DNA of 64,000 nt from Myxococcota bacterium. Lineage in GTDB: Bacteria > Myxococcota > XYA12-FULL-58-9 > JALHOP01. Positions 46,776-56,958 of the stretch are shown here, piece after piece. Location: positions 861-64,860 of the forward strand of contig JBGGMJ010000182.1 of assembly GCA_041288095.1 (NCBI GenBank), in the 5' to 3' direction. The translations under genes and the position numbers were made by a program. The notes beneath the pieces were generated by a model. That model was not told the DNA's origin and ran no database searches. It worked only from the letters and a program-made list of their open reading frames with translations. Within the stretch, counting starts at the first letter, position 1. Every line of letters begins with the position of its first letter.

Positions 46776-47052
46776 TGGCGGGTCGCCCGGAGCTTAAACC
46801 CGAAGGGCGGGTGTTAGGAATGGCCGATTTGCTGGTTTTTGAGGGTTGGTTGCGAAAGAGCCCGTGTCCGCGATAACGTGCCGGTCGATCTCGAGCCGTT
46901 CGCGCGCGCCCGCTTTAGTAGACCGGCGACCGGGAATCCAAAAGGACCCCGTGGGGTTTCACTTGGAGTCTGAACAGGCGTCCGACGGTGTCCGACGATC
47001 GTGATTCCATGGGGTTGGAAGCCCTCGAACAGCGTGTCGGTAGGGGTTCGGC

Positions 47053-47081
47053 TTGACTTCAAAAATAGCGATCCCTATAAG
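47053..47081 (+). promoter_or_regulatory. sigma70-like promoter for the tRNA-tuf transcription unit
   Basis: TTGACT (47053-47058), a 17-nt AT-rich spacer, then TATAAG (47076-47081), about 65 nt upstream of the first tRNA. This is an unusually good consensus match in GC-rich context. Confidence 0.5.
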
Positions 47082-47145
47082 GCCGCGTTTCCAAAAGCGG
47101 GGCGAGTCCTTCATTGGACGAGTTTCCGCCGGACGAAAGCCCTAA

Positions 47146-47221
47146 GCTGGCGTAGCTCAATTGGTAGAGCACCTGATTTGTAATCAGAAGGTTGCGGGTT
47201 CAAGTCCCTTCGCCAGCTCCA
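47146..47221 (+). tRNA. tRNA-Thr (anticodon TGT)
   Basis: Acceptor GCTGGCG/CGCCAGC, D-arm GCTC-AATTGGTA-GAGC, anticodon loop TT-TGT-AA, T-loop GGTTCAAGTCC, encoded CCA. One 50:64 mismatch was seen by eye. Confidence 0.85.
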
Positions 47222-47272
47222 GGGCTGCCGTTGTTTGGAACGAGGTTAGAGAAGAAGTCGGATCCGCGAAGC

Positions 47273-47355
<83 letters not shown>

Positions 47356-47386
47356 TTCAGTTCGATGTTGCAGTTGGTGTCTTCGG

Positions 47387-47462
47387 GCGGGTGTAGCTCA
47401 GTTGGTAGAGCATCAGCCTTCCAAGCTGAGGGTCGCGAGTTCGAGTCTCGTCGCCCGCTCCA
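47387..47462 (+). tRNA. tRNA-Gly (anticodon TCC)
   Basis: Acceptor GCGGGTG/CGCCCGC (one G-U pair), anticodon loop CT-TCC-AA, T-loop AGTTCGAGTCT, encoded CCA. Confidence 0.9.
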
Positions 47463-47491
47463 TGCAGTTGGTGTCCAGTTGTTGGTGTTTG

Positions 47492-47567
47492 GCTCACGTA
47501 GCTCAGTCGGCAGAGCACTTCCTTGGTAAGGAAGAGGTCACCGGTTCAATTCCGGTCGTGAGCTCCA
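47492..47567 (+). tRNA. tRNA-Thr (anticodon GGT)
   Basis: Acceptor GCTCACG/CGTGAGC, anticodon stem-loop CTTCC-TT-GGT-AA-GGAAG, T-loop GGTTCAATTCC, encoded CCA. Confidence 0.9.
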
Positions 47568-47675
47568 TTCGAAGGCTTGCATGTGGTGCGCCGGATCGCG
47601 TAAAGGCGGGCGCCCGCTACGTGCGAGCGGATCGTTTCAAAAAGTATTTACTATCGGGCTGGAGGCCCTACAGCG

Positions 47676-48878
47676 ATGTCTAAGGAAAAGTTCAACCGCG
47701 CGAAGCCGCACGTTAACGTCGGCACGATCGGACACGTTGACCACGGTAAGACCACGACCACTGCGGCGCTGACGAAGATCTCGGCTGACCGCGGCATGGG
47801 CAAGTACATCGCCTATGACGAAGTGGCCAAGGCTTCGGCTGCTCAGGGCCGCCGTGACGAAACCAAGATCCTCACCATCGCGACCAGCCACGTCGAGTAC
47901 GAGACCGACAAGCGCCACTACGCGCACGTCGACTGCCCCGGCCACGCTGACTACGTGAAGAACATGATCACGGGTGCGGCGCAGATGGACGGCGCCATCC
48001 TCGTGGTCTCGGCCGCCGACGGTCCGATGCCCCAGACCCGTGAGCACGTGTTGCTCGCGCGTCAGGTCAACGTTCCGTACATCGTCGTCTTCCTGAACAA
48101 GGTCGACGTCGTTGACGACGCCGAGCTCCTCGACCTCGTCGAGATGGAAGTTCGCGACCTGCTCAAGGCGTACAACTTCCCGGGCGACACGACTCCGGTC
48201 ATCCGTGGCAGCGCGCTCAAGGCGATCAAGGGTGAGAAGGACGGCGTCGACTCCATCATGAAGCTGATGGACGCGCTGGACTCGTTCATCCCCGAGCCGC
48301 AGCGTCTGATCGACAAGCCCTTCCTGATGCCGGTCGAGGACGTCTTCTCGATCTCGGGTCGTGGTACGGTCGTCACCGGTCGTATCGAGCGCGGCATCAT
48401 CAAGGTCGGCGAAGAAGTCGAGATCATCGGTCTGACCGAGAAGAGCTCGAAGACGATCGTCACGGGCGTCGAGATGTTCCGCAAGCTGCTCGACGAAGGT
48501 CGGGCCGGCGACAACGTCGGTTGCCTCCTCCGCGGCACCAAGCGCGAAGAGATCGAGCGTGGCCAGGTTCTGGCCAAGCCCGGCAGCATCACGCCGCACA
48601 AGAAGTTCAAGTGCGAGGTTTACGTGCTGACGAAGGACGAGGGCGGCCGTCACACGCCGTTCTTCTCGAACTATCGTCCGCAGTTCTACTTCCGCACCAC
48701 GGACGTCACCGGTTCCATCAAGCTCCCCGAGGGGATGGAGATGGTCATGCCGGGCGACAACGTGAGCATGACGGTCGAGCTCATCACGCCCATCGCCATG
48801 GAGAAGGAAGTTCGCTTCGCCATCCGCGAAGGCGGACGCACCGTCGGCTCGGGCGTCGTTGCTGAAATCATCGAGTAG
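47676..48878 (+). CDS. tuf: translation elongation factor Tu
   Basis: 400 aa: [39 protein letters not shown], and the full EF-Tu domains II/III. Confidence 0.95.
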
Positions 48879-48886
48879 TATTAATT

Positions 48887-48930
48887 GGGGACATCAACCA
48901 TTTACGAAAAATGGTTGGTGTCCCCATTTT
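48887..48930 (+). terminator. rho-independent terminator after tuf
   Basis: GGGGACATCAACCATTT / AAATGGTTGGTGTCCCC forms a 17-bp stem with one G-U pair, followed by ATTTT. It starts 9 nt after the tuf stop and is AT-rich against the GC-rich background. Confidence 0.65.
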
Positions 48931-48944
48931 AGGGTTCGTGGTCT

Positions 48945-49020
48945 AGGCGAGTAGCTCCAACGGTAGAGCGGCGGTCTCCAAAACCGCATGTTGTGGGTTC
49001 AAATCCCTCCTCGCCTGCCA
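48945..49020 (+). tRNA. tRNA-Trp (anticodon CCA)
   Basis: Acceptor AGGCGAG/CTCGCCT, anticodon stem-loop GCGGT-CT-CCA-AA-ACCGC, T-loop GGTTCAAATCC, encoded CCA. It sits in the conserved position between tuf and secE. Confidence 0.9.
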
Positions 49021-49044
49021 CGGAACGCTACGGTTGTTCGCGAG

Positions 49045-49072
49045 AGCAGGCTTCGATGCCTGCTTTCTTTTT
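49045..49072 (+). terminator. hairpin plus T-tract after tRNA-Trp (terminator or processing/attenuation site)
   Basis: AGCAGGC-TTCGAT-GCCTGCT stem-loop followed by TTCTTTTT. It ends only 11 nt before the secE ATG, so its role relative to secE expression is unclear. Confidence 0.45.
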
Positions 49073-49083
49073 GAGGGTGCGCA

Positions 49084-49470
49084 ATGCAGCGAGATCGTTA
49101 CGTCTTCATCGGGGTCATCGCGTTAGCCGCTATCGCGGCGATGCCGTTGGCGCACGCTCTGACGTGGCTCTTCGCCTACGTCGGCGTGGCTAACCCACGC
49201 ATCTTCGGCGACTTGAGCTTGACAAATTTGGTCGCGTACTGCATTGCGCTCGCCGCAGCTTTGTTCTGCCTCCTGCATCGCCCTACGCGACAGGTTGCGG
49301 GCGAAGTGGTCGAAGAGCTCTCGAAGGTCAGTTGGCCGTCGCGAGCCGAGACCGGAAGCGCGACGGTGGTGGTCATCGTTACGGTGGTCATCTGTTCGCT
49401 CTTCCTCGGTTTCTTCGATGTGATGTGGCGCGCCATTACCGACTGGATCTTGGGCTCGGCGACGAGCTGA
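49084..49470 (+). CDS. secE: preprotein translocase subunit SecE (three-TM form)
   Basis: 128 aa. The C-terminal conserved segment is EVVEELSKVSWPSRAETGSATVVVIVTVVICSLFLGFFD. It lies in the conserved position upstream of nusG. Confidence 0.8.
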   Translation: MQRDRYVFIGVIALAAIAAMPLAHALTWLFAYVGVANPRIFGDLSLTNLVAYCIALAAALFCLLHRPTRQVAGEVVEELSKVSWPSRAETGSATVVVIVTVVICSLFLGFFDVMWRAITDWILGSATS

Positions 49471-49489
49471 CGGAATACGAAACGACATC

Positions 49490-50095
49490 ATGATGACCAG
49501 CACGGACAACGAGCAGACAGGCGCACAGGCGATGGCCCCGGAAGGCACGCCCGCGGTGAACCCCAACCTCAAGTGGTACGTCGTTCACACGTACTCGGTG
49601 TACGAGAACCGCGCGAAGAAGTCCCTCGAAGAGCGCATCAAGCAGGGCCACATGGAGGCCCGCTTCGGCGAGGTTCTCATCCCCACCGAAAACGTGATGG
49701 AGCTGGGCAAGGGCGGTCAGAAGAAGACCACCAAGCGCAAGTTCTTCCCGGGGTACATGCTGGTGCAAATGGAGCTGACCGACGAGAGCTGGCATCTCGT
49801 GAAGTCGACTCCGAAGATCACCGGCTTCGTCGGCGACGCCACCAAGCCCCCGGCGATTCCCGAGAGCGAAGTTCGCAAGCTCACCCAGCAGATCGACGAA
49901 GGCACGCTCAAGCCCAAGCCGCGTGTGCAGTTCGAGGACGGCGAGAACGTGCGCGTCGTCGATGGCCCGTTCGCCAACTTCAACGGCGTCGTGGACGGCG
50001 TGAACAGCGACAAGGGCAAGGTTCGAGTTTTGGTGTCGATCTTCGGGCGCGCGACGCCCGTCGAGCTCGATTTCATTCAGGTCGAGAAGGCTTAA
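49490..50095 (+). CDS. nusG: transcription termination/antitermination factor NusG
   Basis: 201 aa with KWYVVHTYSVYENRAKKSLEERI (NGN domain) and a C-terminal KOW (ENVRVVDGPFANFNGVV). Confidence 0.9.
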   Translation: MMTSTDNEQTGAQAMAPEGTPAVNPNLKWYVVHTYSVYENRAKKSLEERIKQGHMEARFGEVLIPTENVMELGKGGQKKTTKRKFFPGYMLVQMELTDESWHLVKSTPKITGFVGDATKPPAIPESEVRKLTQQIDEGTLKPKPRVQFEDGENVRVVDGPFANFNGVVDGVNSDKGKVRVLVSIFGRATPVELDFIQVEKA

Positions 50096-50126
50096 AGAAA
50101 GTCTTCAGTAAGCAAGGCGTAGGATC

Positions 50127-50570
50127 ATGGCTAAGAAGGTCTCCGGTTTCATCAAGTTGCAAATCCCCGCTGGTAAGGCGAACCCCTCGCCGCCGGTCGG
50201 TCCTGCGCTCGGTCAGCACGGCGTGAACATCATGCAGTTCTGCAAAGAGTTCAACGCGCGCACCCAGAAGGAAGGCGACATGATCATCCCCGTGGTGATC
50301 ACCGTCTTCAGCGACCGCTCGTTCACCTTCATCACCAAGACCCCGCCGGCGTCGATCCTTCTCAAGAAGGTCACCGGCATGAAGACCACCAAGAAGCCGG
50401 GTGCGGGCTCGAAGGAGCCCAACAAGACCAAGGTGGGCAAGGTCACGATGAAGCAGATCGAAGAAGTGGCCAAGCAGAAGATGCCCGACATGAACGCCAA
50501 GGACCTCAAGGGCGCCATGAACAGCATCATGGGTACGGCCAAGTCCATGGGCCTCGACATCGTTCAGTAA
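50127..50570 (+). CDS. rplK: 50S ribosomal protein L11
   Basis: 147 aa: [44 protein letters not shown]. Confidence 0.95.
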
Positions 50571-50593
50571 GAACGAAAAGGCTCGGAATCGAA

Positions 50594-50634
50594 GGCCCGC
50601 TGACGGTACGCCGTTGGCGGGCTTTTTTCGTTTT
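50594..50634 (+). terminator. rho-independent terminator immediately after rplK
   Basis: GGCCCGCTGACGG-TAC-GCCGTTGGCGGGC hairpin (with G-U pairs) followed by TTTTTTCGTTTT. It starts 24 nt after the rplK stop. Confidence 0.65.
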
Positions 50635-50668
50635 GCCCTGGCTGGACGAGCCGGCGGATAAGGCGCCT

Positions 50669-51559
50669 ATGCGAAGCGCTCGCTCATTGCTCACGACCGC
50701 GATCCTGGCCGCTCTGACGTGGGTCGGTGTTGCTTGCGCGACGCGCGATGACGAGCCCGTCGAAGCGCACCCCGAGGCCGCGGCACCGGCGCCTTCGCCG
50801 ATCGTACCGCCCGCGGGCGCGATCGATCCAGCGCCCGAGCCGGCGACTCCACCTCCGGAGGACGACGACTCGCCGACCCTCGTCGCGTACCCACCCCCGC
50901 GAATCGAGAACGTCGTTGTACGCCGAAGCGGTCAGGAGGTGCGTCTCGTCGCGCGCGTGAGCCGCGTCCGTGGCGCCAGCAGGTACGATCTGCAGGTGGC
51001 GAAGACCCTCATGTTCGAGCCACTTCTCGCGGAGGGCTCCACGTCGGGGCGCTCTGTGAACGTCGGACCGCTCCCGCCGGGGATGTTCTTCGTCCACGCG
51101 CGGGCCGTCGGGGCTGCTGGTGAAGGACCCTTCGGCGATGTGCGCGTCGTTCACGCTCACAAGGGCGGTCTCGCGAAGCTACGGCCGGTGACCGAGGAAG
51201 ACGCGGCAGAGCCGATGCTCGCTGGGCTCCCCCCGGAGAAGACCGCCGGGGCGACGCCCGCCGCGAGTGCCGTGCTCATCGCGACGCCCGAGGCCAAGCC
51301 GAACCTCGCCCGCTTGGGTCCGCTACGCCAGCGCTACGAGCAGCTGCAGCGCGAGCTCGCCGAGGTCGAAGGGCTACGACGCGAAGTCGAGGCCAAGGTC
51401 GCGGAGCTGCGAGGACGCCTGGCGGGTGCCAAGGCGAAGAGCGCGGCGACGCTCCAGGGTGACCTCGAGGTCCTCGAGGCGACCCGCACGCAGCTCGATC
51501 GCGAGATTACCGCTGGCCTCGCCGAGCTCGACCGCATGCTGGCTGCTTCGACGCCCTGA
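50669..51559 (+). CDS. hypothetical lipoprotein with a Pro-rich linker, an Ig/FN3-like middle and a C-terminal coiled coil
   Basis: The ATG at 50669 gives MRSARSLLTTAILAALTWVGVAC (lipobox). There is a Pro/Ala-rich stretch. The C-terminus has heptad-like LRQRYEQLQRELAEVEGLRREVEAKVAELRGRL. The track ORF starts at TTG 50633. Confidence 0.5.
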   Translation: MRSARSLLTTAILAALTWVGVACATRDDEPVEAHPEAAAPAPSPIVPPAGAIDPAPEPATPPPEDDDSPTLVAYPPPRIENVVVRRSGQEVRLVARVSRVRGASRYDLQVAKTLMFEPLLAEGSTSGRSVNVGPLPPGMFFVHARAVGAAGEGPFGDVRVVHAHKGGLAKLRPVTEEDAAEPMLAGLPPEKTAGATPAASAVLIATPEAKPNLARLGPLRQRYEQLQRELAEVEGLRREVEAKVAELRGRLAGAKAKSAATLQGDLEVLEATRTQLDREITAGLAELDRMLAASTP

Positions 51560-51621
51560 TCCGACGCGGTGTCAGGTCCAGACCGGACAACGGGCTCGAT
51601 GGTCAGGCCGATACTCGCATC

Positions 51622-53346
51622 ATGAATCTCGATAAAGCGTCGGGTGTTGTTCTTCGCGGAACAACGCGGGTGGGTGGCGAGGCGCGGACGGACGCGGGGA
51701 CTAGCGACAAGCCCGGTGGTCCGGCGCTCCATACGGGGCGCAATCCGGCCGCGGACGGTATCGTCCGTGTTGGCGGACAGGCGCCGGCGACCCAGCTCAG
51801 CATGCTGACTCGGACGACCTTCGATCGCGCGGTGACGCTCGTCGCCGTCTTCGGCAAGACCAGCGACTTCGCCGACCTCAAGTTCGACTTCACCGGCGAC
51901 GCCGGCCAGGCCCATCGCGCTCGGGCCGCGGTTAGCGATGCCTTGCAGGGGTGGTTTCCGCGCTGGGAGAACCCAGCGTTCAAGTTCCGTCAGATTGGTG
52001 AGTCCATCTGCAAGGCGATCACCGGCTCCTTGGCCTGGAACGTCGCCGCGTGGCCGTGCAGCTTGTTCGAGGTCCGCTCGTACCCCTTGCGCGGGCTCGA
52101 CACCGGACGGACGAGCGCTGAATACATCGCGGCGGGGCTCCAGCTCCTGACCGCTCTAGCGGAGCGCGACCTCGTCGACCTGAAGGCGATCGTGAAACCA
52201 GACGACGTCAAGGCGCTGGTTGCCCTGGTCGGCGCCGGGCGAGCCATGCGCGACCAGAGTCCGACACCGGCGCTCGCGAGGTCATTGCCATTCTTGCGGG
52301 TGAGCGCCGCCAAGCCGTCGGCTGGCGCGTCCGCGACCGCCTTCGAGGATCACTTCCGTTCACGCGGCATCCAGGCACGCGCCGCGGCGGCGGACGTGGT
52401 CACCTCGGCCGTCGCGGTCTTGCAAGTTGTGGCGCCCGAGGCTCTCGCCGCGATCGAGACGACGGTTCGTCCGGCAACCCCGGCCGAGCGCTTGGCCGTC
52501 GACACCACGCTCTCCGCCGGTGGCATCGAGGCGCTGGCTCACGTGATCGAAGCCAACAAGCGCGGCGGCGGTTACTTCGACACCACCGGCCTACGCATGG
52601 CCATCGAGCGTTTGGTGATCGAGGGCTTCGTCGACACTCCCAGGTCGCGTGAGCGCAATGCCGAGGCGGGGCGCGAGCTCATCGGCGCTTACATCGGCGC
52701 GCTCAAGACCGTTAGAGGTTCTCTCGCGTACACCAGGCGCGAGGACGCAACGCGCGCCCAGACCCTGTGCGACGAGCTTGCGACCTTGTGCTCGGCGCTA
52801 CGCGACGGCCAGCTCGGCGCCGCGGTCACCGCCAGGATGCACGCCTTCGAGTATCCGCAGAAGGTCGCGCAGATCGCAGGCTCGATGCGCGAGCGCTTGC
52901 AGCCCCTCGCAGCTGGCGGCGATGCAGACGCGACGGCGACGCTCGCGGCGGTCGAACGCTTGAGCGCCACATTCTCCGCGATCGAGCCCCTGGTACACGA
53001 TTTCACCGGCTTGTCGTCCGAGGCACGGCTCAAAGCCGTTACCAAGCTGCTGGGCGGCTACGTGGACAAGCTCGGTCCGCTAGAGCGACAGCTGCGTTAC
53101 GAGCCCGCGGCGGGCGAGGGGGAAGCGCGCAAGCTCTGCGAGGACCTCGGCAAGCTCCTCCAGTCGCTCGCGGGCGACCCCTACGTCGGCGACCTGCGCA
53201 AGCATGTCGACACGTCGGGGATAGGGCGTCAAATGCGCCGGCACATCGATCGGATCATGGACCAGGTGCAGGACACCCCAGAGGCCGTCGAGAACGGCAC
53301 GCTGGCCGCGCTCACCCGCCTGCGGGCCACCCTCATGGACTGGTGA
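51622..53346 (+). CDS. orphan all-helical protein, tandem paralogue B (574 aa)
   Basis: Collinear with the next ORF (N-termini MNLDKASGVVLRG...HTGRNPAADGIVRVGG...TRTTFDRAVTLVAVFG vs MTIHKASVVVRGR...HTGCNPATDGTVRKSG...TRTTFERAVTLAMVFG). It has an extra C-terminal repeat unit. Confidence 0.55.
   Translation: MNLDKASGVVLRGTTRVGGEARTDAGTSDKPGGPALHTGRNPAADGIVRVGGQAPATQLSMLTRTTFDRAVTLVAVFGKTSDFADLKFDFTGDAGQAHRARAAVSDALQGWFPRWENPAFKFRQIGESICKAITGSLAWNVAAWPCSLFEVRSYPLRGLDTGRTSAEYIAAGLQLLTALAERDLVDLKAIVKPDDVKALVALVGAGRAMRDQSPTPALARSLPFLRVSAAKPSAGASATAFEDHFRSRGIQARAAAADVVTSAVAVLQVVAPEALAAIETTVRPATPAERLAVDTTLSAGGIEALAHVIEANKRGGGYFDTTGLRMAIERLVIEGFVDTPRSRERNAEAGRELIGAYIGALKTVRGSLAYTRREDATRAQTLCDELATLCSALRDGQLGAAVTARMHAFEYPQKVAQIAGSMRERLQPLAAGGDADATATLAAVERLSATFSAIEPLVHDFTGLSSEARLKAVTKLLGGYVDKLGPLERQLRYEPAAGEGEARKLCEDLGKLLQSLAGDPYVGDLRKHVDTSGIGRQMRRHIDRIMDQVQDTPEAVENGTLAALTRLRATLMDW
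52339..52512 (+). repeat. 174-nt highly conserved segment shared with 53931..54104 (intragenic, between the tandem paralogues)
   Basis: Hand alignment: gccttcgaggatcacttccgttcacgcggcatccaggcacgcgcc... vs gccttcgaggatcatttccgttcacgtggcatgcaagcgcgcgcc.... The encoded 58 aa are about 84% identical (AFEDHFRSRG[I/M]QARAAAADVVTSAVAVL...). Confidence 0.7.
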
Positions 53347-53357
53347 AGGCGCCAACC

Positions 53358-54671
53358 ATGACCATCCACAAGGCATCGGTTGTTGTTCGCGGCCGCTTAG
53401 CGCAGGCGGGCAGCCAGCCGCGGCTAGACACAGAGGCCAGTCGTGAGGCGGGTGGGGCAAGGCTTCACACTGGGTGTAACCCAGCCACCGACGGGACCGT
53501 CCGCAAGAGCGGTCGGAAGCGCCAGTCTGCCACGGACGTGCTTACCCGGACCACCTTCGAGCGCGCTGTGACTCTGGCCATGGTCTTCGGCGACGCCAAA
53601 CATGTCGCCGAGTCGTCGCAGAACCCTGCCGTCAATCGTGAGATCGGCAGATCGATTTGCAAAGGAATCAGTGTTCTCGCCTGGAGAGTCGATGAATCGC
53701 CGTGCCGCCTCCTCGATAGGCAATCGTATCCCCAGCGTGGCCTCACCGACGGACGCATGGGCGTCGAATACATCGCGGCAGGGCTACGGCTGCTGACCGC
53801 TTTGGCCGACCGCGACCTCAAGGAGATCGTGAACGCCACGGATGTCGAGGCGCTTGTCGCCGTGATCCGGGCTGGTAGAGCCATGCGCGACCAGATCCCT
53901 ACGTCGGCGCTCGCTGGGCCTGTGGCGACGGCCTTCGAGGATCATTTCCGTTCACGTGGCATGCAAGCGCGCGCCGCCGCGGCCGACGTCGTGACGTCCG
54001 CGGTCGCGGTCCTTCGGCGTGTCGCGCCCGAAGCTCTCGCCCAGGTGGACACGACCGTTCGCCCTGCAAACACCACCGAGCGCCTGGCTGTCGATACGAC
54101 GCTCCACGGCTGTGCGCAGACCCTGACAGCCGAGGTGCTCGATCACGTGAGCGAGGCCAACAAGCTCCGCGGCAGGTCCTTCGACACCCCAAGGTTGCGC
54201 ATCGCGGTCGAACGTCTCGCCCTCGAGGGGTTCGTCGATACACCGAGGTCGCGCCAGCGCAACGTCGAGGCGGCGCGGGAATGCGTCGCCGCCTATGTCG
54301 GCGCGCTTCGCGGCATCGCGGGCCACCTCGTGTACATGACGCCCGACGACGCCAAGCGTGCCCAGAATCTTTGCGACGAGCTTTCGACGTTATGCACCGC
54401 GCTGCGTGATGGGCCGCTCGGTGCCGACATCGCTGCCAGGATGCGCGTGTTCGAGTACCCGCGCATGCTCTTCAGGATTATCGCGTCGATGCGCGAGCGC
54501 CTTCGACCACTCACGGCGGGCGGGGACGTACACGCGAAAGCGACTCTTGAGGCGGTGGGCCGCTTGCGCGACGCCTTCGCGCGGATTGATCCCCCATTGC
54601 ACGATTTCATGGTCGTGTGTGCCGACGTGGTTTACGACAACGCCGCGCCAAAACCCTCGACGAGTCGTTAG
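53358..54671 (+). CDS. orphan all-helical protein, tandem paralogue C (437 aa)
   Basis: The ATG at 53358 is 11 nt after the stop of paralogue B. The longer track ORF (52767..) is an alternate-frame run-in across the preceding gene. Confidence 0.55.
   Translation: MTIHKASVVVRGRLAQAGSQPRLDTEASREAGGARLHTGCNPATDGTVRKSGRKRQSATDVLTRTTFERAVTLAMVFGDAKHVAESSQNPAVNREIGRSICKGISVLAWRVDESPCRLLDRQSYPQRGLTDGRMGVEYIAAGLRLLTALADRDLKEIVNATDVEALVAVIRAGRAMRDQIPTSALAGPVATAFEDHFRSRGMQARAAAADVVTSAVAVLRRVAPEALAQVDTTVRPANTTERLAVDTTLHGCAQTLTAEVLDHVSEANKLRGRSFDTPRLRIAVERLALEGFVDTPRSRQRNVEAARECVAAYVGALRGIAGHLVYMTPDDAKRAQNLCDELSTLCTALRDGPLGADIAARMRVFEYPRMLFRIIASMRERLRPLTAGGDVHAKATLEAVGRLRDAFARIDPPLHDFMVVCADVVYDNAAPKPSTSR
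53931..54104 (+). repeat. second copy of the 174-nt conserved segment (see 52339..52512)
   Basis: Same hand alignment as above. Confidence 0.7.
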
Positions 54672-54808
54672 CCCGCCGACATCGCGGCGCGCTCGAATAG
54701 CGGTGATACGCCGCTGTCACGATGACAGGGTCATCCAACGCGCGGTTGAGCCGTTCCACGAGGCTCGAGCGACTCACCGCATAACGACGAACGCTACGGA
54801 GCTCAACG

Positions 54809-56188
54809 ATGAAACCAATCATTGTGTGGTGTTGCTTTGCCATCGGCCTGACGGTGCTCGCACCCCGGCTGGTGGACGCCGGTGAGTGCATATCGGGTTA
54901 TTGCGGAACGCCGACCCAGTCGGGCGGTGGTGGCGGCTGTGGCTGCGGGTGCGGCTGTGGTTGCAGCATCCTTGTCGCTATGACGGACAGAGGCGTGACA
55001 TACCAGTTCGCCGACGATCAGGACGGCGATGGGGTCGAGGACGACTTCGACAACTGCGCCTTCAACTCGAACTACGACCAAGCGGACGCCGACGGCGATC
55101 AAATCGGCGACGCTTGTGACAACTGCGCGAGCGCCGCGAACACGGTGCAGCGGGACGTCAACCTGAACGGTGTCGGCGATGCCTGTGATGCCGACGCCGA
55201 CGGCGACCATATCGCGAACGAGCGCGACAACTGCGCCTTCATCCCTAATCCGTCGCAGGCCAACAACGACGGGGATACCGAGGGCGACATTTGCGATCTC
55301 GACGACGACAACGATGGTCTCGCCGACACGCAGGATCCCTGCCGCTTGGTGGCCGGCGGCTCGAGCGGTGGCGGTGCTTGCGACGATGACCCCGACCAGG
55401 ACGGCCTCGTGAACGAGGCGGACAACTGTCCTGAGGTGTCGAACGCCGGAGCGCGTGACATCGACGTCGATGGCGTCGGCGACGCCTGTGACCAGGACGC
55501 CGACGGCGACGGCCGCGAGAACTTCCGGGACAACTGCGCCTATGTCGCTAACCCCGGCCAGGTCGACGCCGACAACGATGGCCTCGGCGATGCCGGAAAC
55601 TTCGGCTCGGGCACCGGCCTCGAGTCTTGTGACACCAAGGAGTGTTACGTCGTCGACCGCGGGGCCTACTCCGCGATGTCGGACGGTGAGAAGACCGCGT
55701 CGTGCTTGGACCCCACACAGGCGTTCTCGACGCGCCTCGCGCTCGCTGGAGCGAACACACTCACCGGGCTGCGTACCGGCGACGTCATCGAGGTGCGCCT
55801 GTTCACCAATCGGTTGAACGCCGTGCACACCTGGTCGGCGGCTTTCGATACCGCGCCCGACGACTCGATGAGCACGCTGGACAACGCCATCGGCTCCGCC
55901 GCGACCTATCCGGGTTCGTTCCAGGTCGGTGCCGACCCGACCTACAGCACCATCCGCTTCAAGGCCGACCGAGCCGGAGCGTATCGCGTTCGCGTGAGCA
56001 CCGAGCTCCAGGGTGGCGACCTGCTGGGTCTGCCGGTCAGCACTAGCACGCAAGAGATCGTGGCTGAGGTTGGTGAAGGCGCGGGGGACGAGTCAGGTGG
56101 CTGTGCGTCGACTCGCGCTCAGGCAAGTCTGCTCGCACTTGTGGTGGCGTTGGGGCTCGCCGCGGGCCTGCGCACGCGCCGAGGCTGA
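54809..56188 (+). CDS. secreted thrombospondin type-3 repeat protein with a MYXO-CTERM-like sorting tail
   Basis: The signal peptide is MKPIIVWCCFAIGLTVLAPRLVDA. There are at least 8 TSP3-type Ca-binding repeats (DQDGDGVEDDFDNC, DADGDQIGDACDNC, DADADGDHIANERDNC, NNDGDTEGDICD, DPDQDGLVNEADNC, DQDADGDGRENFRDNC, DADNDGLGD). The C-terminus GGCASTRAQASLLALVVALGLAAGLRTRRG has Cys + TM helix + Arg cluster. Confidence 0.85.
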   Translation: MKPIIVWCCFAIGLTVLAPRLVDAGECISGYCGTPTQSGGGGGCGCGCGCGCSILVAMTDRGVTYQFADDQDGDGVEDDFDNCAFNSNYDQADADGDQIGDACDNCASAANTVQRDVNLNGVGDACDADADGDHIANERDNCAFIPNPSQANNDGDTEGDICDLDDDNDGLADTQDPCRLVAGGSSGGGACDDDPDQDGLVNEADNCPEVSNAGARDIDVDGVGDACDQDADGDGRENFRDNCAYVANPGQVDADNDGLGDAGNFGSGTGLESCDTKECYVVDRGAYSAMSDGEKTASCLDPTQAFSTRLALAGANTLTGLRTGDVIEVRLFTNRLNAVHTWSAAFDTAPDDSMSTLDNAIGSAATYPGSFQVGADPTYSTIRFKADRAGAYRVRVSTELQGGDLLGLPVSTSTQEIVAEVGEGAGDESGGCASTRAQASLLALVVALGLAAGLRTRRG

Positions 56189-56233
56189 GTGGGCCGCGCG
56201 GGTAAGCAAAGGTAGGTGTTCGCGCCTTCCCGA

Positions 56234-56273
56234 AGCCCCTCCTGGCCAAAAGCGTAGGCCAGGAGGGGCTTTC
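56234..56273 (+). terminator. perfect 14-bp stem-loop downstream of the TSP3 gene (probable terminator)
   Basis: AGCCCCTCCTGGCC (56234-56247), a 9-nt loop, then GGCCAGGAGGGGCT (56257-56270), followed by TTC. The U-tract is short, so termination efficiency is uncertain. Confidence 0.5.
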
Positions 56274-56355
56274 GAGCAGGCCGCGAAAAGTTGAGCTGAA
56301 CTTGGCGGCCCGAGCGACACTCAATGTCGTGGCCGTCCTACGCGATCAGAAGAGC

Positions 56356-56958
56356 ATGAACAGGTCCGACTCTTCGACAGTGCGGCCGGTGGCGCTCATG
56401 ACGGCGGTCCGCAACGGCGAGCCCGGCGCGGCGGCGATGCTCTTCGATGGGCTCGCGCCTCGCATCCGACGGCTCCTGCGGCGCGCCTGCGGAGCCACCC
56501 ATGACCTCGACGATCTCGTCCAGGATTGCTTCCTCAAGCTGTGGAAGAGCATCGGCCGCCTAAAGGACCCCGAGCGGCTCGACGGCTTCGTGTACGCGAT
56601 CGCGGTCCACACGGCGCGCTCGGCGCTACGCAAGCGCTACGTTCGGCGTATCCTCAGGATCGACACCGCGGTAGTCGAAGAGGTCGGCGATGCGTATTCG
56701 GGCACCGTCGAGCAGCGCGAGAGAGCGCGAGTCGGGGCGGCGGTCTTGGACGGTTTGAGCCCGGAGCTCCGCCTCGCTTTCGTTTTGAGGCACGTCGAGG
56801 AGCTCGATCTCCAAGAGGGAGCCGAGGCATTGGGAGTCTCGTTGTCGACGTTCAAGCGGCGCGTCGCCGCGGCGGAGCGGCGGGTCGATGTTTTGATGCG
56901 GCGCGCGTCACCATTACCGACATCGGTGACGCAGTGGTCGGGGGGAGAAGGGGTATGA
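56356..56958 (+). CDS. ECF (group 4) RNA polymerase sigma factor
   Basis: Start ATG at 56356. Region 2: DLVQDCFLKLWKSIGRLKDPERLDGFVYAIAVHTARSALRKR. Region 4 HTH: LSPELRLAFVLRHVEELDLQEGAEALGVSLSTFKRRV. Confidence 0.8.
   Translation: MNRSDSSTVRPVALMTAVRNGEPGAAAMLFDGLAPRIRRLLRRACGATHDLDDLVQDCFLKLWKSIGRLKDPERLDGFVYAIAVHTARSALRKRYVRRILRIDTAVVEEVGDAYSGTVEQRERARVGAAVLDGLSPELRLAFVLRHVEELDLQEGAEALGVSLSTFKRRVAAAERRVDVLMRRASPLPTSVTQWSGGEGV

Follow-up and report, generated by a model that had tools for sequence, protein, structure and literature searches.

One described system with which the genes treated here can be compared is mts, a cell-cohesion locus of Myxococcus with MtsC as MXAN_1334, as it appears in the passages of PMC11980579 and PMC12475490 that cite Zhang et al. 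2007. In the 64,000-nucleotide stretch of Myxococcota DNA analysed here (contig JBGGMJ010000182.1 of assembly GCA_041288095.1; the whole stretch is called the window), a gene for an MtsC-type surface protein, with thrombospondin type 3 (TSP3) repeats and a MYXO-CTERM, lies 3' of two tandem open reading frames (ORFs), B and C. However, B and C have no counterpart in the canonical mts loci or in the syntenic island of a related genome (L009). The two genes are diverged copies from a fast-evolving orphan family with a confidently predicted all-alpha domain, and the segment most alike between them is held by selection on the protein. Myxobacteria have many orphan families, but few features of this one are usual when taken together: it is extremely rare, its fold is confidently predicted yet unmatched, it diverges very fast, and its control region is compact and conserved.

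The comparison of B and C uses four features:

51622-53346, plus strand: ORF B, 574 amino acids (aa); ~60 disordered N-terminal residues and an all-alpha core, both predicted, are followed by an additional C-terminal unit
53358-54671, plus strand: ORF C, 437 aa, paralogue of B
52339-52512, plus strand: B copy of a 58-aa core, B residues 240-297
53931-54104, plus strand: C copy of the 58-aa core

An earlier sequence-only reading had described the pair as collinear paralogues separated by 11 nucleotides (nt), and this is borne out. The stop of B and the start of C are 11 nt apart, the motifs quoted in that reading are present, and BLASTP aligns the two proteins from residue 1 with 252/465 identities (54%, E 4e-152). 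A codon-aware MAFFT alignment is 58.7% identical over 433 aligned codons. Over the whole gene the synonymous divergence (dS) is 0.89 and the non-synonymous divergence (dN) 0.30, with a ratio (omega) of 0.34; the dS is about equal to the species-level dS of ordinary neighbouring genes (0.84-1.2). By this divergence the tandem duplication that gave B and C is old (dS about 0.9), and purifying selection acts on each copy (omega about 0.34). Because both are under such selection, B and C are functional genes. ORF C is without a 28-aa segment that corresponds to B residues about 90-117; among the relatives from other genomes introduced below, the segment is full in P0006 and P0010 and partial in P0011.

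The sequence-only reading also proposed a near-identical core of 174 nt, shaped by gene conversion or by strong constraint. At the protein level the core does stand out, with 49/58 identical residues (84%) vs ~55% across the remaining alignment (binomial P 1.5e-6), and the identity profile of B against C is not uniformly low. The DNA of the core, however, is only 79% identical (138/174 nt), and "near-identical" thus holds for the protein and not for the DNA. Tandem paralogues are a classical substrate for conversion, and a recent event that homogenised the 174 nt would account for a protein segment that is 84% identical where about 55% is found elsewhere. We regard such an event as extremely improbable. 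The DNA identity of the core is little above that of several other blocks at 76-78% (in a repeat scan of the DNA the core block scores 78% and the other B-C blocks 71-78%), third positions agree in 33/58 codons (57%) vs 54% in the whole alignment, and no stretch of DNA longer than 18 nt is exactly shared by the two genes, the one of that length being found elsewhere than in the core. Nei-Gojobori estimates for the core are a proportion of synonymous differences (pS) of 0.48, a proportion of non-synonymous differences (pN) of 0.10 and a dS of 0.77, and for the rest of the gene a pS of 0.53, a pN of 0.27 and a dS of 0.92. There is no local synonymous depression, while non-synonymous divergence in the core is 2.7-fold below that of the rest and the core omega is about 0.14. 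Because pS and third positions in the core match the rest of the gene while pN is lower, it is evidently stronger purifying selection at the protein level, and not gene conversion, that keeps the two cores alike. Of the two causes first proposed, it is constraint that survives.

This constraint does not extend to the family as a whole. Between lineages the identity of the core is 0.37 vs 0.35 elsewhere in the protein, i.e., there is no special family-wide conservation, and the extra conservation of the core is specific to the B/C pair of one genome. Two other blocks are more conserved between lineages, EYIAAGL (B 167-173) with an identity of 0.45 and, with 0.53, the family's most conserved block:

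52621-52650, plus strand: EGFVDTPRSR, B residues 334-343, with G335-P340 and R343 invariant in five sequences

The C-terminus of B carries a second, younger duplication, built from two units:

52642-52971, plus strand: C-terminal helical unit 1 of B, residues about 341-450, common to all family members
53011-53334, plus strand: C-terminal helical unit 2 of B, residues about 464-571, B-specific duplicate of unit 1

That the extra C-terminal unit of B repeats the preceding helical unit had been noticed from the sequence, and the computed alignments agree. A local alignment of B 341-450 with B 464-571 scores 69, compared with 28.4 +/- 4.8 for shuffled sequences (z 8.5), and hhalign matches B 461-574 to the C-terminal unit of the family with a probability of 96% (E 2.4e-9). 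No other internal repeats were found inside the family domain. B duplicated its last helical unit (~110 aa) after the B/C duplication.

The family is very small. An HMMER profile search, exhaustive over 1.84 billion cluster representatives, returns five family proteins only: C itself (P0002), a fragment of B from another assembly (P0005), P0006 with 483 aa, and P0010 and P0011 with 433 and 385 aa as publicly called. A word-based search of 5.8 billion sequences gives 4 matches and adds no further member; scans of GTDB genomes and of JGI metagenomes find one locus each and likewise no further member. All sources of the family are soil metagenomes or metagenome-assembled genomes (MAGs) labelled Myxococcota, and two loci (L007 and L008) are re-assemblies of the window population with 99.85-99.89% DNA identity.

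Homology searches assign B and C to no characterised family. In Pfam there is no significant match (the best is Apolipoprotein, PF01442, with 12.4 bits vs a cut-off of 90), and none to the TPR, ARM or HEAT signatures or to Sigma70_r2 or Sigma70_r4. NCBIfam gives no match for the family; the best PADLOC match (E 0.034) is not significant, nor is the best PHROGs match, which has E 0.0011 with one family member only. A sequence-profile search of the PDB finds no significant match. The PDB search does show a weak likeness to region 2 of an extracytoplasmic function (ECF) sigma factor (6dxo_A, E 0.07, 51 columns), which falls on the residues that lead into the core and on its beginning. However, the aligned segment is mostly an insertion that B and C lack, and the likeness is treated as chance. 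No homology was found between B/C and the neighbouring orphans P0007 and P0015 of other loci or the glycine-zipper proteins P0012 and P0013. By the searches made the family is without known relatives, and it appears to be unclassified, lineage-restricted and confined to a few related soil Myxococcota.

The rarity goes together with rapid change. Divergence was compared over one set of genome pairs for all proteins, with the following amino acid identities and dN values:

L11, EF-Tu and L1: 95-99% aa, dN 0.010-0.035
MtsC: 85-88% aa, dN 0.08-0.09
ECF sigma factor: 76% aa, dN 0.18
FecR-like protein: 62% aa, dN 0.30
ORF A: 56-67% aa, dN 0.23-0.36
B family: 32-45% aa, dN 0.53-0.72

These values indicate that the B family diverges far faster than its neighbour proteins; where two genomes have MtsC proteins about 85% identical, their family proteins share only 31-45%. 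The most divergent family copy is found in the closest species (L003), and the lineages are roughly equidistant in the family protein, save for B vs C.

Structurally, the family domain is predicted with confidence. A first AlphaFold2 model of full-length B from three sequences has a mean predicted local distance difference test (pLDDT) of 59.7, with residues 1-60 disordered (pLDDT 26-31); its Foldseek matches are meaningless, with template modelling scores (TM-scores) <= 0.2. The model of B residues 61-462 from five sequences reaches a pLDDT of 83.3 and a predicted TM-score (pTM) of 0.82, and has about 19 helices and no real sheet. In this model the first 31 residues of the core form the C-terminal part of the longest, central helix (B 234-270, pLDDT 87-97). 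A fold match was taken as Foldseek E <= 1e-3 together with a TM-score >= 0.5 for a confident model. The best match in the PDB has E 0.064 and a TM-score of 0.21 and the best match in BFVD E 0.09 and 0.13, i.e., no fold match in either library. The closest matches of all are to generic alpha-solenoids, TPR proteins and helical bundles, among them the designed repeats 7rdr and 9mg8 and 3ceq, a TPR of kinesin light chain. They share the antiparallel all-alpha build, but with E >= 0.06, TM-scores <= 0.22 and a root-mean-square deviation of about 20 Å they do not share the fold. We provisionally describe the model as a new fold, the libraries compared being the PDB and BFVD. If the AlphaFold model is right, the family would have a compact domain of ~400 residues without a sequence or structural relative in the libraries compared. 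"Categorically new" here means that no known family or fold can be assigned, not that a new mechanism has been demonstrated.

The statement of the sequence-only reading that neither protein has a signal peptide, transmembrane helix or known motif is confirmed by the database searches above and by two further results. There is no convincing transmembrane helix in B or C, as the maximum Kyte-Doolittle hydropathy over 19 residues (KD19) is 1.3-1.8, in a helix with Asp, Glu and Pro. Judged from sequence and model, there is also no signal peptide or lipobox, the N-termini being polar and disordered.

The genomic setting of the pair is high-GC (about 66%) Myxococcota DNA. Upstream lie five tRNA genes (four 5' of tuf and one in the tuf-secE gap), tuf, secE, nusG and rplK; downstream follow genes for an ECF sigma factor and a FecR-like anti-sigma factor, and then rplA, rplJ and rplL. 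An Rfam scan of 46800-60200 finds tRNAs only. As first read, the pair lies inside the ribosomal-protein cluster, more precisely within a 7.5-kb island that parts rplK from rplA:

50127-50570, plus strand: rplK (ribosomal protein L11), identified by translation, 97-99% identical to the L11 of L003, L004 and L009; left island border
50591-50626, plus strand: strong intrinsic-terminator-like hairpin of 16 pairs with a T-run, directly 3' of rplK
50633-51559, plus strand: ORF A, whose product has a hydrophobic leader, ends in a coiled coil and is putatively exported or lipoprotein-like
54809-56188, plus strand: MtsC-type thrombospondin-type-3-repeat MYXO-CTERM surface protein, NF047638 404.8 bits with a cut-off of 350
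56356-56958, plus strand: ECF sigma factor, neighbour of the MtsC-type gene
56955-57917, plus strand: FecR-like anti-sigma factor, directly after the ECF sigma factor
58047-58754, plus strand: rplA (ribosomal protein L1), right island border

The relatives place the family gene in different surroundings. L003 is the closest relative (L11 99.3% identical in aa, nusG-rplK 95.7% in nt) and has the order nusG-rplK-A'-P0010-MtsC', with one family copy at the same site between A and MtsC. In L004 the order is tuf-secE-nusG-rplK, a 913-aa gene on the opposite strand, P0011 and rplA-rplJ-rplL, without A, MtsC or ECF gene. L009, a contig of MAG bin.157, is collinear with window 42769-64000. The stretch from rplK to rplA still contains A, MtsC, ECF and FecR there, but no B/C gene; its A-MtsC gap is 285 nt, and no B/C remnant was found in it. 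ORF A is kept beside MtsC in both L003 and L009 (52-67% aa). A second contig of the same MAG (L001) has P0006 between hrcA-grpE and dnaK, with an ECF/anti-sigma/DUF3106 set 5' of it and a 475-aa orphan and a HepT/MNT toxin-antitoxin pair 3' of it.

One explanation would make B and C part of a surface module formed with the lipoprotein A, the MtsC-type adhesin, the ECF sigma factor and FecR, for example as cytoplasmic regulators or ECF targets. The order A, family gene, MtsC in both the window and L003 and the ECF/anti-sigma set directly 5' of P0006 in L001 speak for it, and so does a promoter-like arrangement discussed below. We consider it quite unlikely. L009 has A-MtsC-ECF-FecR without B/C, while L004 has a family gene without A, MtsC or ECF; the window ECF sigma factor and the other family-linked one are only 31% identical and not orthologues; and MtsC has > 1300 relatives vs 5 for the B/C family. 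The canonical mts loci (L010, L012 and L013), which consist of tpi-pgk-aldh, genes of ~720 aa and ~340 aa, MtsC, two VWA genes and a gene of ~900 aa, are without a B/C gene. Nor does the family co-occur with mtsC as a component of mts would, being present without it in L004 and L001. The sequence-only reading had asked whether the pair always accompanies the ECF/FecR genes and the TSP3 protein; L009 and L004 each show that it does not. Because L009 keeps the module without the family gene and L004 has the family gene without the module, the B/C family is not an obligate partner of the MtsC, A or ECF/FecR genes. The gene orders rather indicate that the family gene is an autonomous accessory unit, present in 0, 1 or 2 copies at rplK-rplA and elsewhere at grpE-dnaK. 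A transposon-like unit comprising B and C was rejected: no terminal direct or inverted repeats were found at the ends around B-C, and the indel boundary relative to L009 is clean and featureless.

The family gene seems to carry its own control region, for which two features of the window are relevant:

51560-51576, plus strand: imperfect palindrome TCCGAC-N5-GTCAGG, candidate operator
51589-51614, plus strand: promoter-like AAC-N17-CGATAC, ending 7 nt before the ATG of ORF B

The control regions compared are window 51560-51624, L001 9968-10003, L003 about 2450-2509 and L004 9820-9880. A CGATAY box lies 7-8 nt before the ATG in 4/4 stand-alone family genes, and [C/G]AAC lies 17 nt 5' of the box in 3/4, while the surrounding DNA is otherwise unalignable. 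CGATAY-N7-ATG occurs at one site in the 64-kb window, that of ORF B, where 0.32 are expected. The same palindrome (CCTGAC-N5-GTC[CG]GG) is found at the same distance 5' of P0010 and P0011, about 33 nt 5' of the box in B, P0010 and P0011. The palindrome is a candidate operator, and its recurrence suggests that operator and promoter region travel with the family gene. Upstream of ORF C neither box, [C/G]AAC nor palindrome is present, and C is presumably co-transcribed with and translationally coupled to B.

Leaderless mRNAs are common in Actinobacteria and Deinococcus. The stand-alone family genes resemble such bacterial mRNAs in two ways: counted from the A of the ATG, positions -12 to -7 are taken up by a -10-like hexamer, GATAYY, and a Shine-Dalgarno sequence is lacking (none precedes ORF B). 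Because the box ends 7-8 nt before the ATG, their mRNA is probably leaderless or near-leaderless. They differ in that the element is here known from sequence alone and could equally be an ECF-type -10. ECF-type promoters have an AAC -35, which [C/G]AAC-N17-CGATAY would resemble; this is the arrangement that would favour the surface module, although the window ECF gene has no convincingly matching promoter. An ECF-autoregulated promoter common to B and the window ECF gene was tried and found unconvincing, and it is not conserved in L009.

The gene starts were re-examined as well, placing that of P0010 at L003:2507 (460 aa) and that of P0011 at L004:9878 (426 aa, equal to the ENA call P0139). 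Public calls give 377 or 367 aa for C, 433 aa for P0010 and 385 aa for P0011. Because all five proteins share the N-terminal M-[NKT]-[LIVA]-[DH]-[KN], the public calls evidently start C, P0010 and P0011 too late, and the forms of 437, 460 and 426 aa are supported.

As to what the proteins do, we would guess, with weak confidence, at helical proteins of the cytoplasm that bind partners or serve as adaptors, the cytoplasm being the most likely location because no signal peptide or transmembrane segment is predicted. We suggest that the central long helix could be a surface for B-C binding or for binding one shared lineage-specific partner, which would explain why the core is frozen between the paralogues and free between lineages. 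The rapid divergence outside the helix might then mean that the proteins follow a changing partner or take part in some conflict. What is said here on evolution and anatomy has good support; taken as a whole, the explanation by an old, duplicated, fast-evolving orphan family together with this functional guess is the best we have, and we give it an even chance.

The same divergence, with the variable presence and position of the gene, could also come from an arms race in which B and C would act, as exported effectors or as polymorphic toxins, in cell-cell or predator-prey conflict, the N-terminus and its disordered leader serving as a non-Sec signal. The N-terminal motif in all five proteins, followed by a disordered stretch of ~55 aa, would suit such a signal. 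Elsewhere, genes with Gly-rich hydrophobic hairpins or tails are neighbours (P0007 in L001, P0015 in L004), and toxin-antitoxin genes are near (HepT/MNT in L001, HicB in L009). Polymorphic toxin/immunity and other conflict loci are indeed alike in extreme divergence, in variation of copy number and position and in lying in variable islands. However, the B/C family has no conserved N-terminal delivery domain, variable C-terminal tip or cognate immunity gene: its centre and C-terminus are conserved and its N-terminus variable, the reverse of polymorphic toxins. No secretion-system genes, no trafficking domain (PAAR, Rhs, VgrG or lipobox) and no small downstream immunity gene are present, and no small co-oriented downstream gene is conserved. 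There is no PADLOC or Pfam toxin match, and the conservation of the N-terminal codons can be explained at the mRNA level by leaderless initiation. We therefore regard an exported effector or toxin as improbable, if still the most serious competitor to the cytoplasmic binding protein.

Rapid gene turnover, variable location, nearby toxin-antitoxin genes and narrow distribution would also fit a single-gene anti-phage or other defence factor housed in a variable island. This is very unlikely, as the proteins have no PADLOC match, no recognisable nuclease, NADase, ATPase or membrane effector domain, and an all-helical structure without a match to known defence folds. A bolder form of the argument would see the new fold as a movable, self-contained one-gene unit of operator, promoter and leaderless ORF that invades terminator-bounded gaps in essential operons (rplK|rplA and grpE|dnaK) of one Myxococcota lineage. 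In it an undescribed conflict, recognition or effector gene would be driven by an arms race, with B and C forming a heteromer through the central helix; we think this unlikely.

Several points weigh against the cytoplasmic orphan family as we read it. A remote relative may exist beyond the sequence libraries, the PDB and BFVD. A conversion event almost as old as the duplication would formally still be compatible with the data, the core dS of 0.77 vs 0.92 being within error for 58 codons. The sequence runs with a match are soil DNA metagenomes only, and no RNA run has the sequence. The motif M-[NKT]-x-[DH]-[KN] and the disordered stretch after it could be a non-Sec secretion signal, and the invariant polar residues R69, R157, E167, Y168, H244, R248, N312, D338, T339, R343 and Y357 would also fit an enzyme. 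Location and partner are predictions from sequence and model. Site-wise tests of selection would need more than five sequences, and between lineages dS approaches saturation.

Families of this kind are candidates for new biology, be it recognition, conflict or regulation, in social and predatory bacteria, and the present one is a clean test case with two diverged copies, a paralogue-specific conserved helix and a compact conserved control region. In practical terms the analysis corrects the idea of gene conversion, places the pair outside the MtsC/ECF module and exposes late public gene starts.

The rplK|rplA gap itself is a variable island in this lineage, with a strong terminator after rplK and contents that differ in every genome. 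The stretches compared are window 50571-58046, L009 8539-14160, L004 6800-11252 and L003 1310 to the end. The MtsC-type protein of the window is encoded within this ribosomal island, unlike the locus in L010, L012 and L013, which come from more distant Myxococcota, and the window copy may be relocated or paralogous. Between MtsC and the ECF gene, a perfect 15-bp inverted repeat, AAGCCCCTCCTGGCC ... GGCCAGGAGGGGCTT, lies at 56233-56271, 3' of MtsC. It is conserved in L009 and is likely a terminator that parts MtsC from the ECF operon.

The L009 island has an extra 332-aa minus-strand orphan 5' of rplA, and in L003 the homologue of ORF A (1466-2420) falls into two frames around 1890-1900, which in a contig of 3x coverage more probably reflects faulty assembly than a pseudogene. 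The L004 island holds only the 913-aa orphan and the family gene. This orphan, P0015, lies at L004 7000-9741 on the minus strand, divergent from P0011. It begins with a coiled coil, its C-terminal region is long, hydrophobic and rich in Gly/Ala, and neither Pfam nor PADLOC gives a match. The 475-aa orphan P0007 (L001 11548-12975) stands directly 3' of P0006 and contains a Gly-rich hydrophobic hairpin (residues about 75-112) as well as two near-repeats, SFDALSLEARAELAPLVR and SFDAISPEAKAELAPIIR. P0007 is not similar to the glycine-zipper proteins of the window. Those glycine-zipper hairpin proteins are encoded 3' of rplL at window 60636-63519, L004 13953-15611 and L009 17173-20062, with nt identities of about 77-82%. 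Because L009 has them without a B/C gene in its island, the glycine-zipper and B/C orphan families appear not to be strictly linked.

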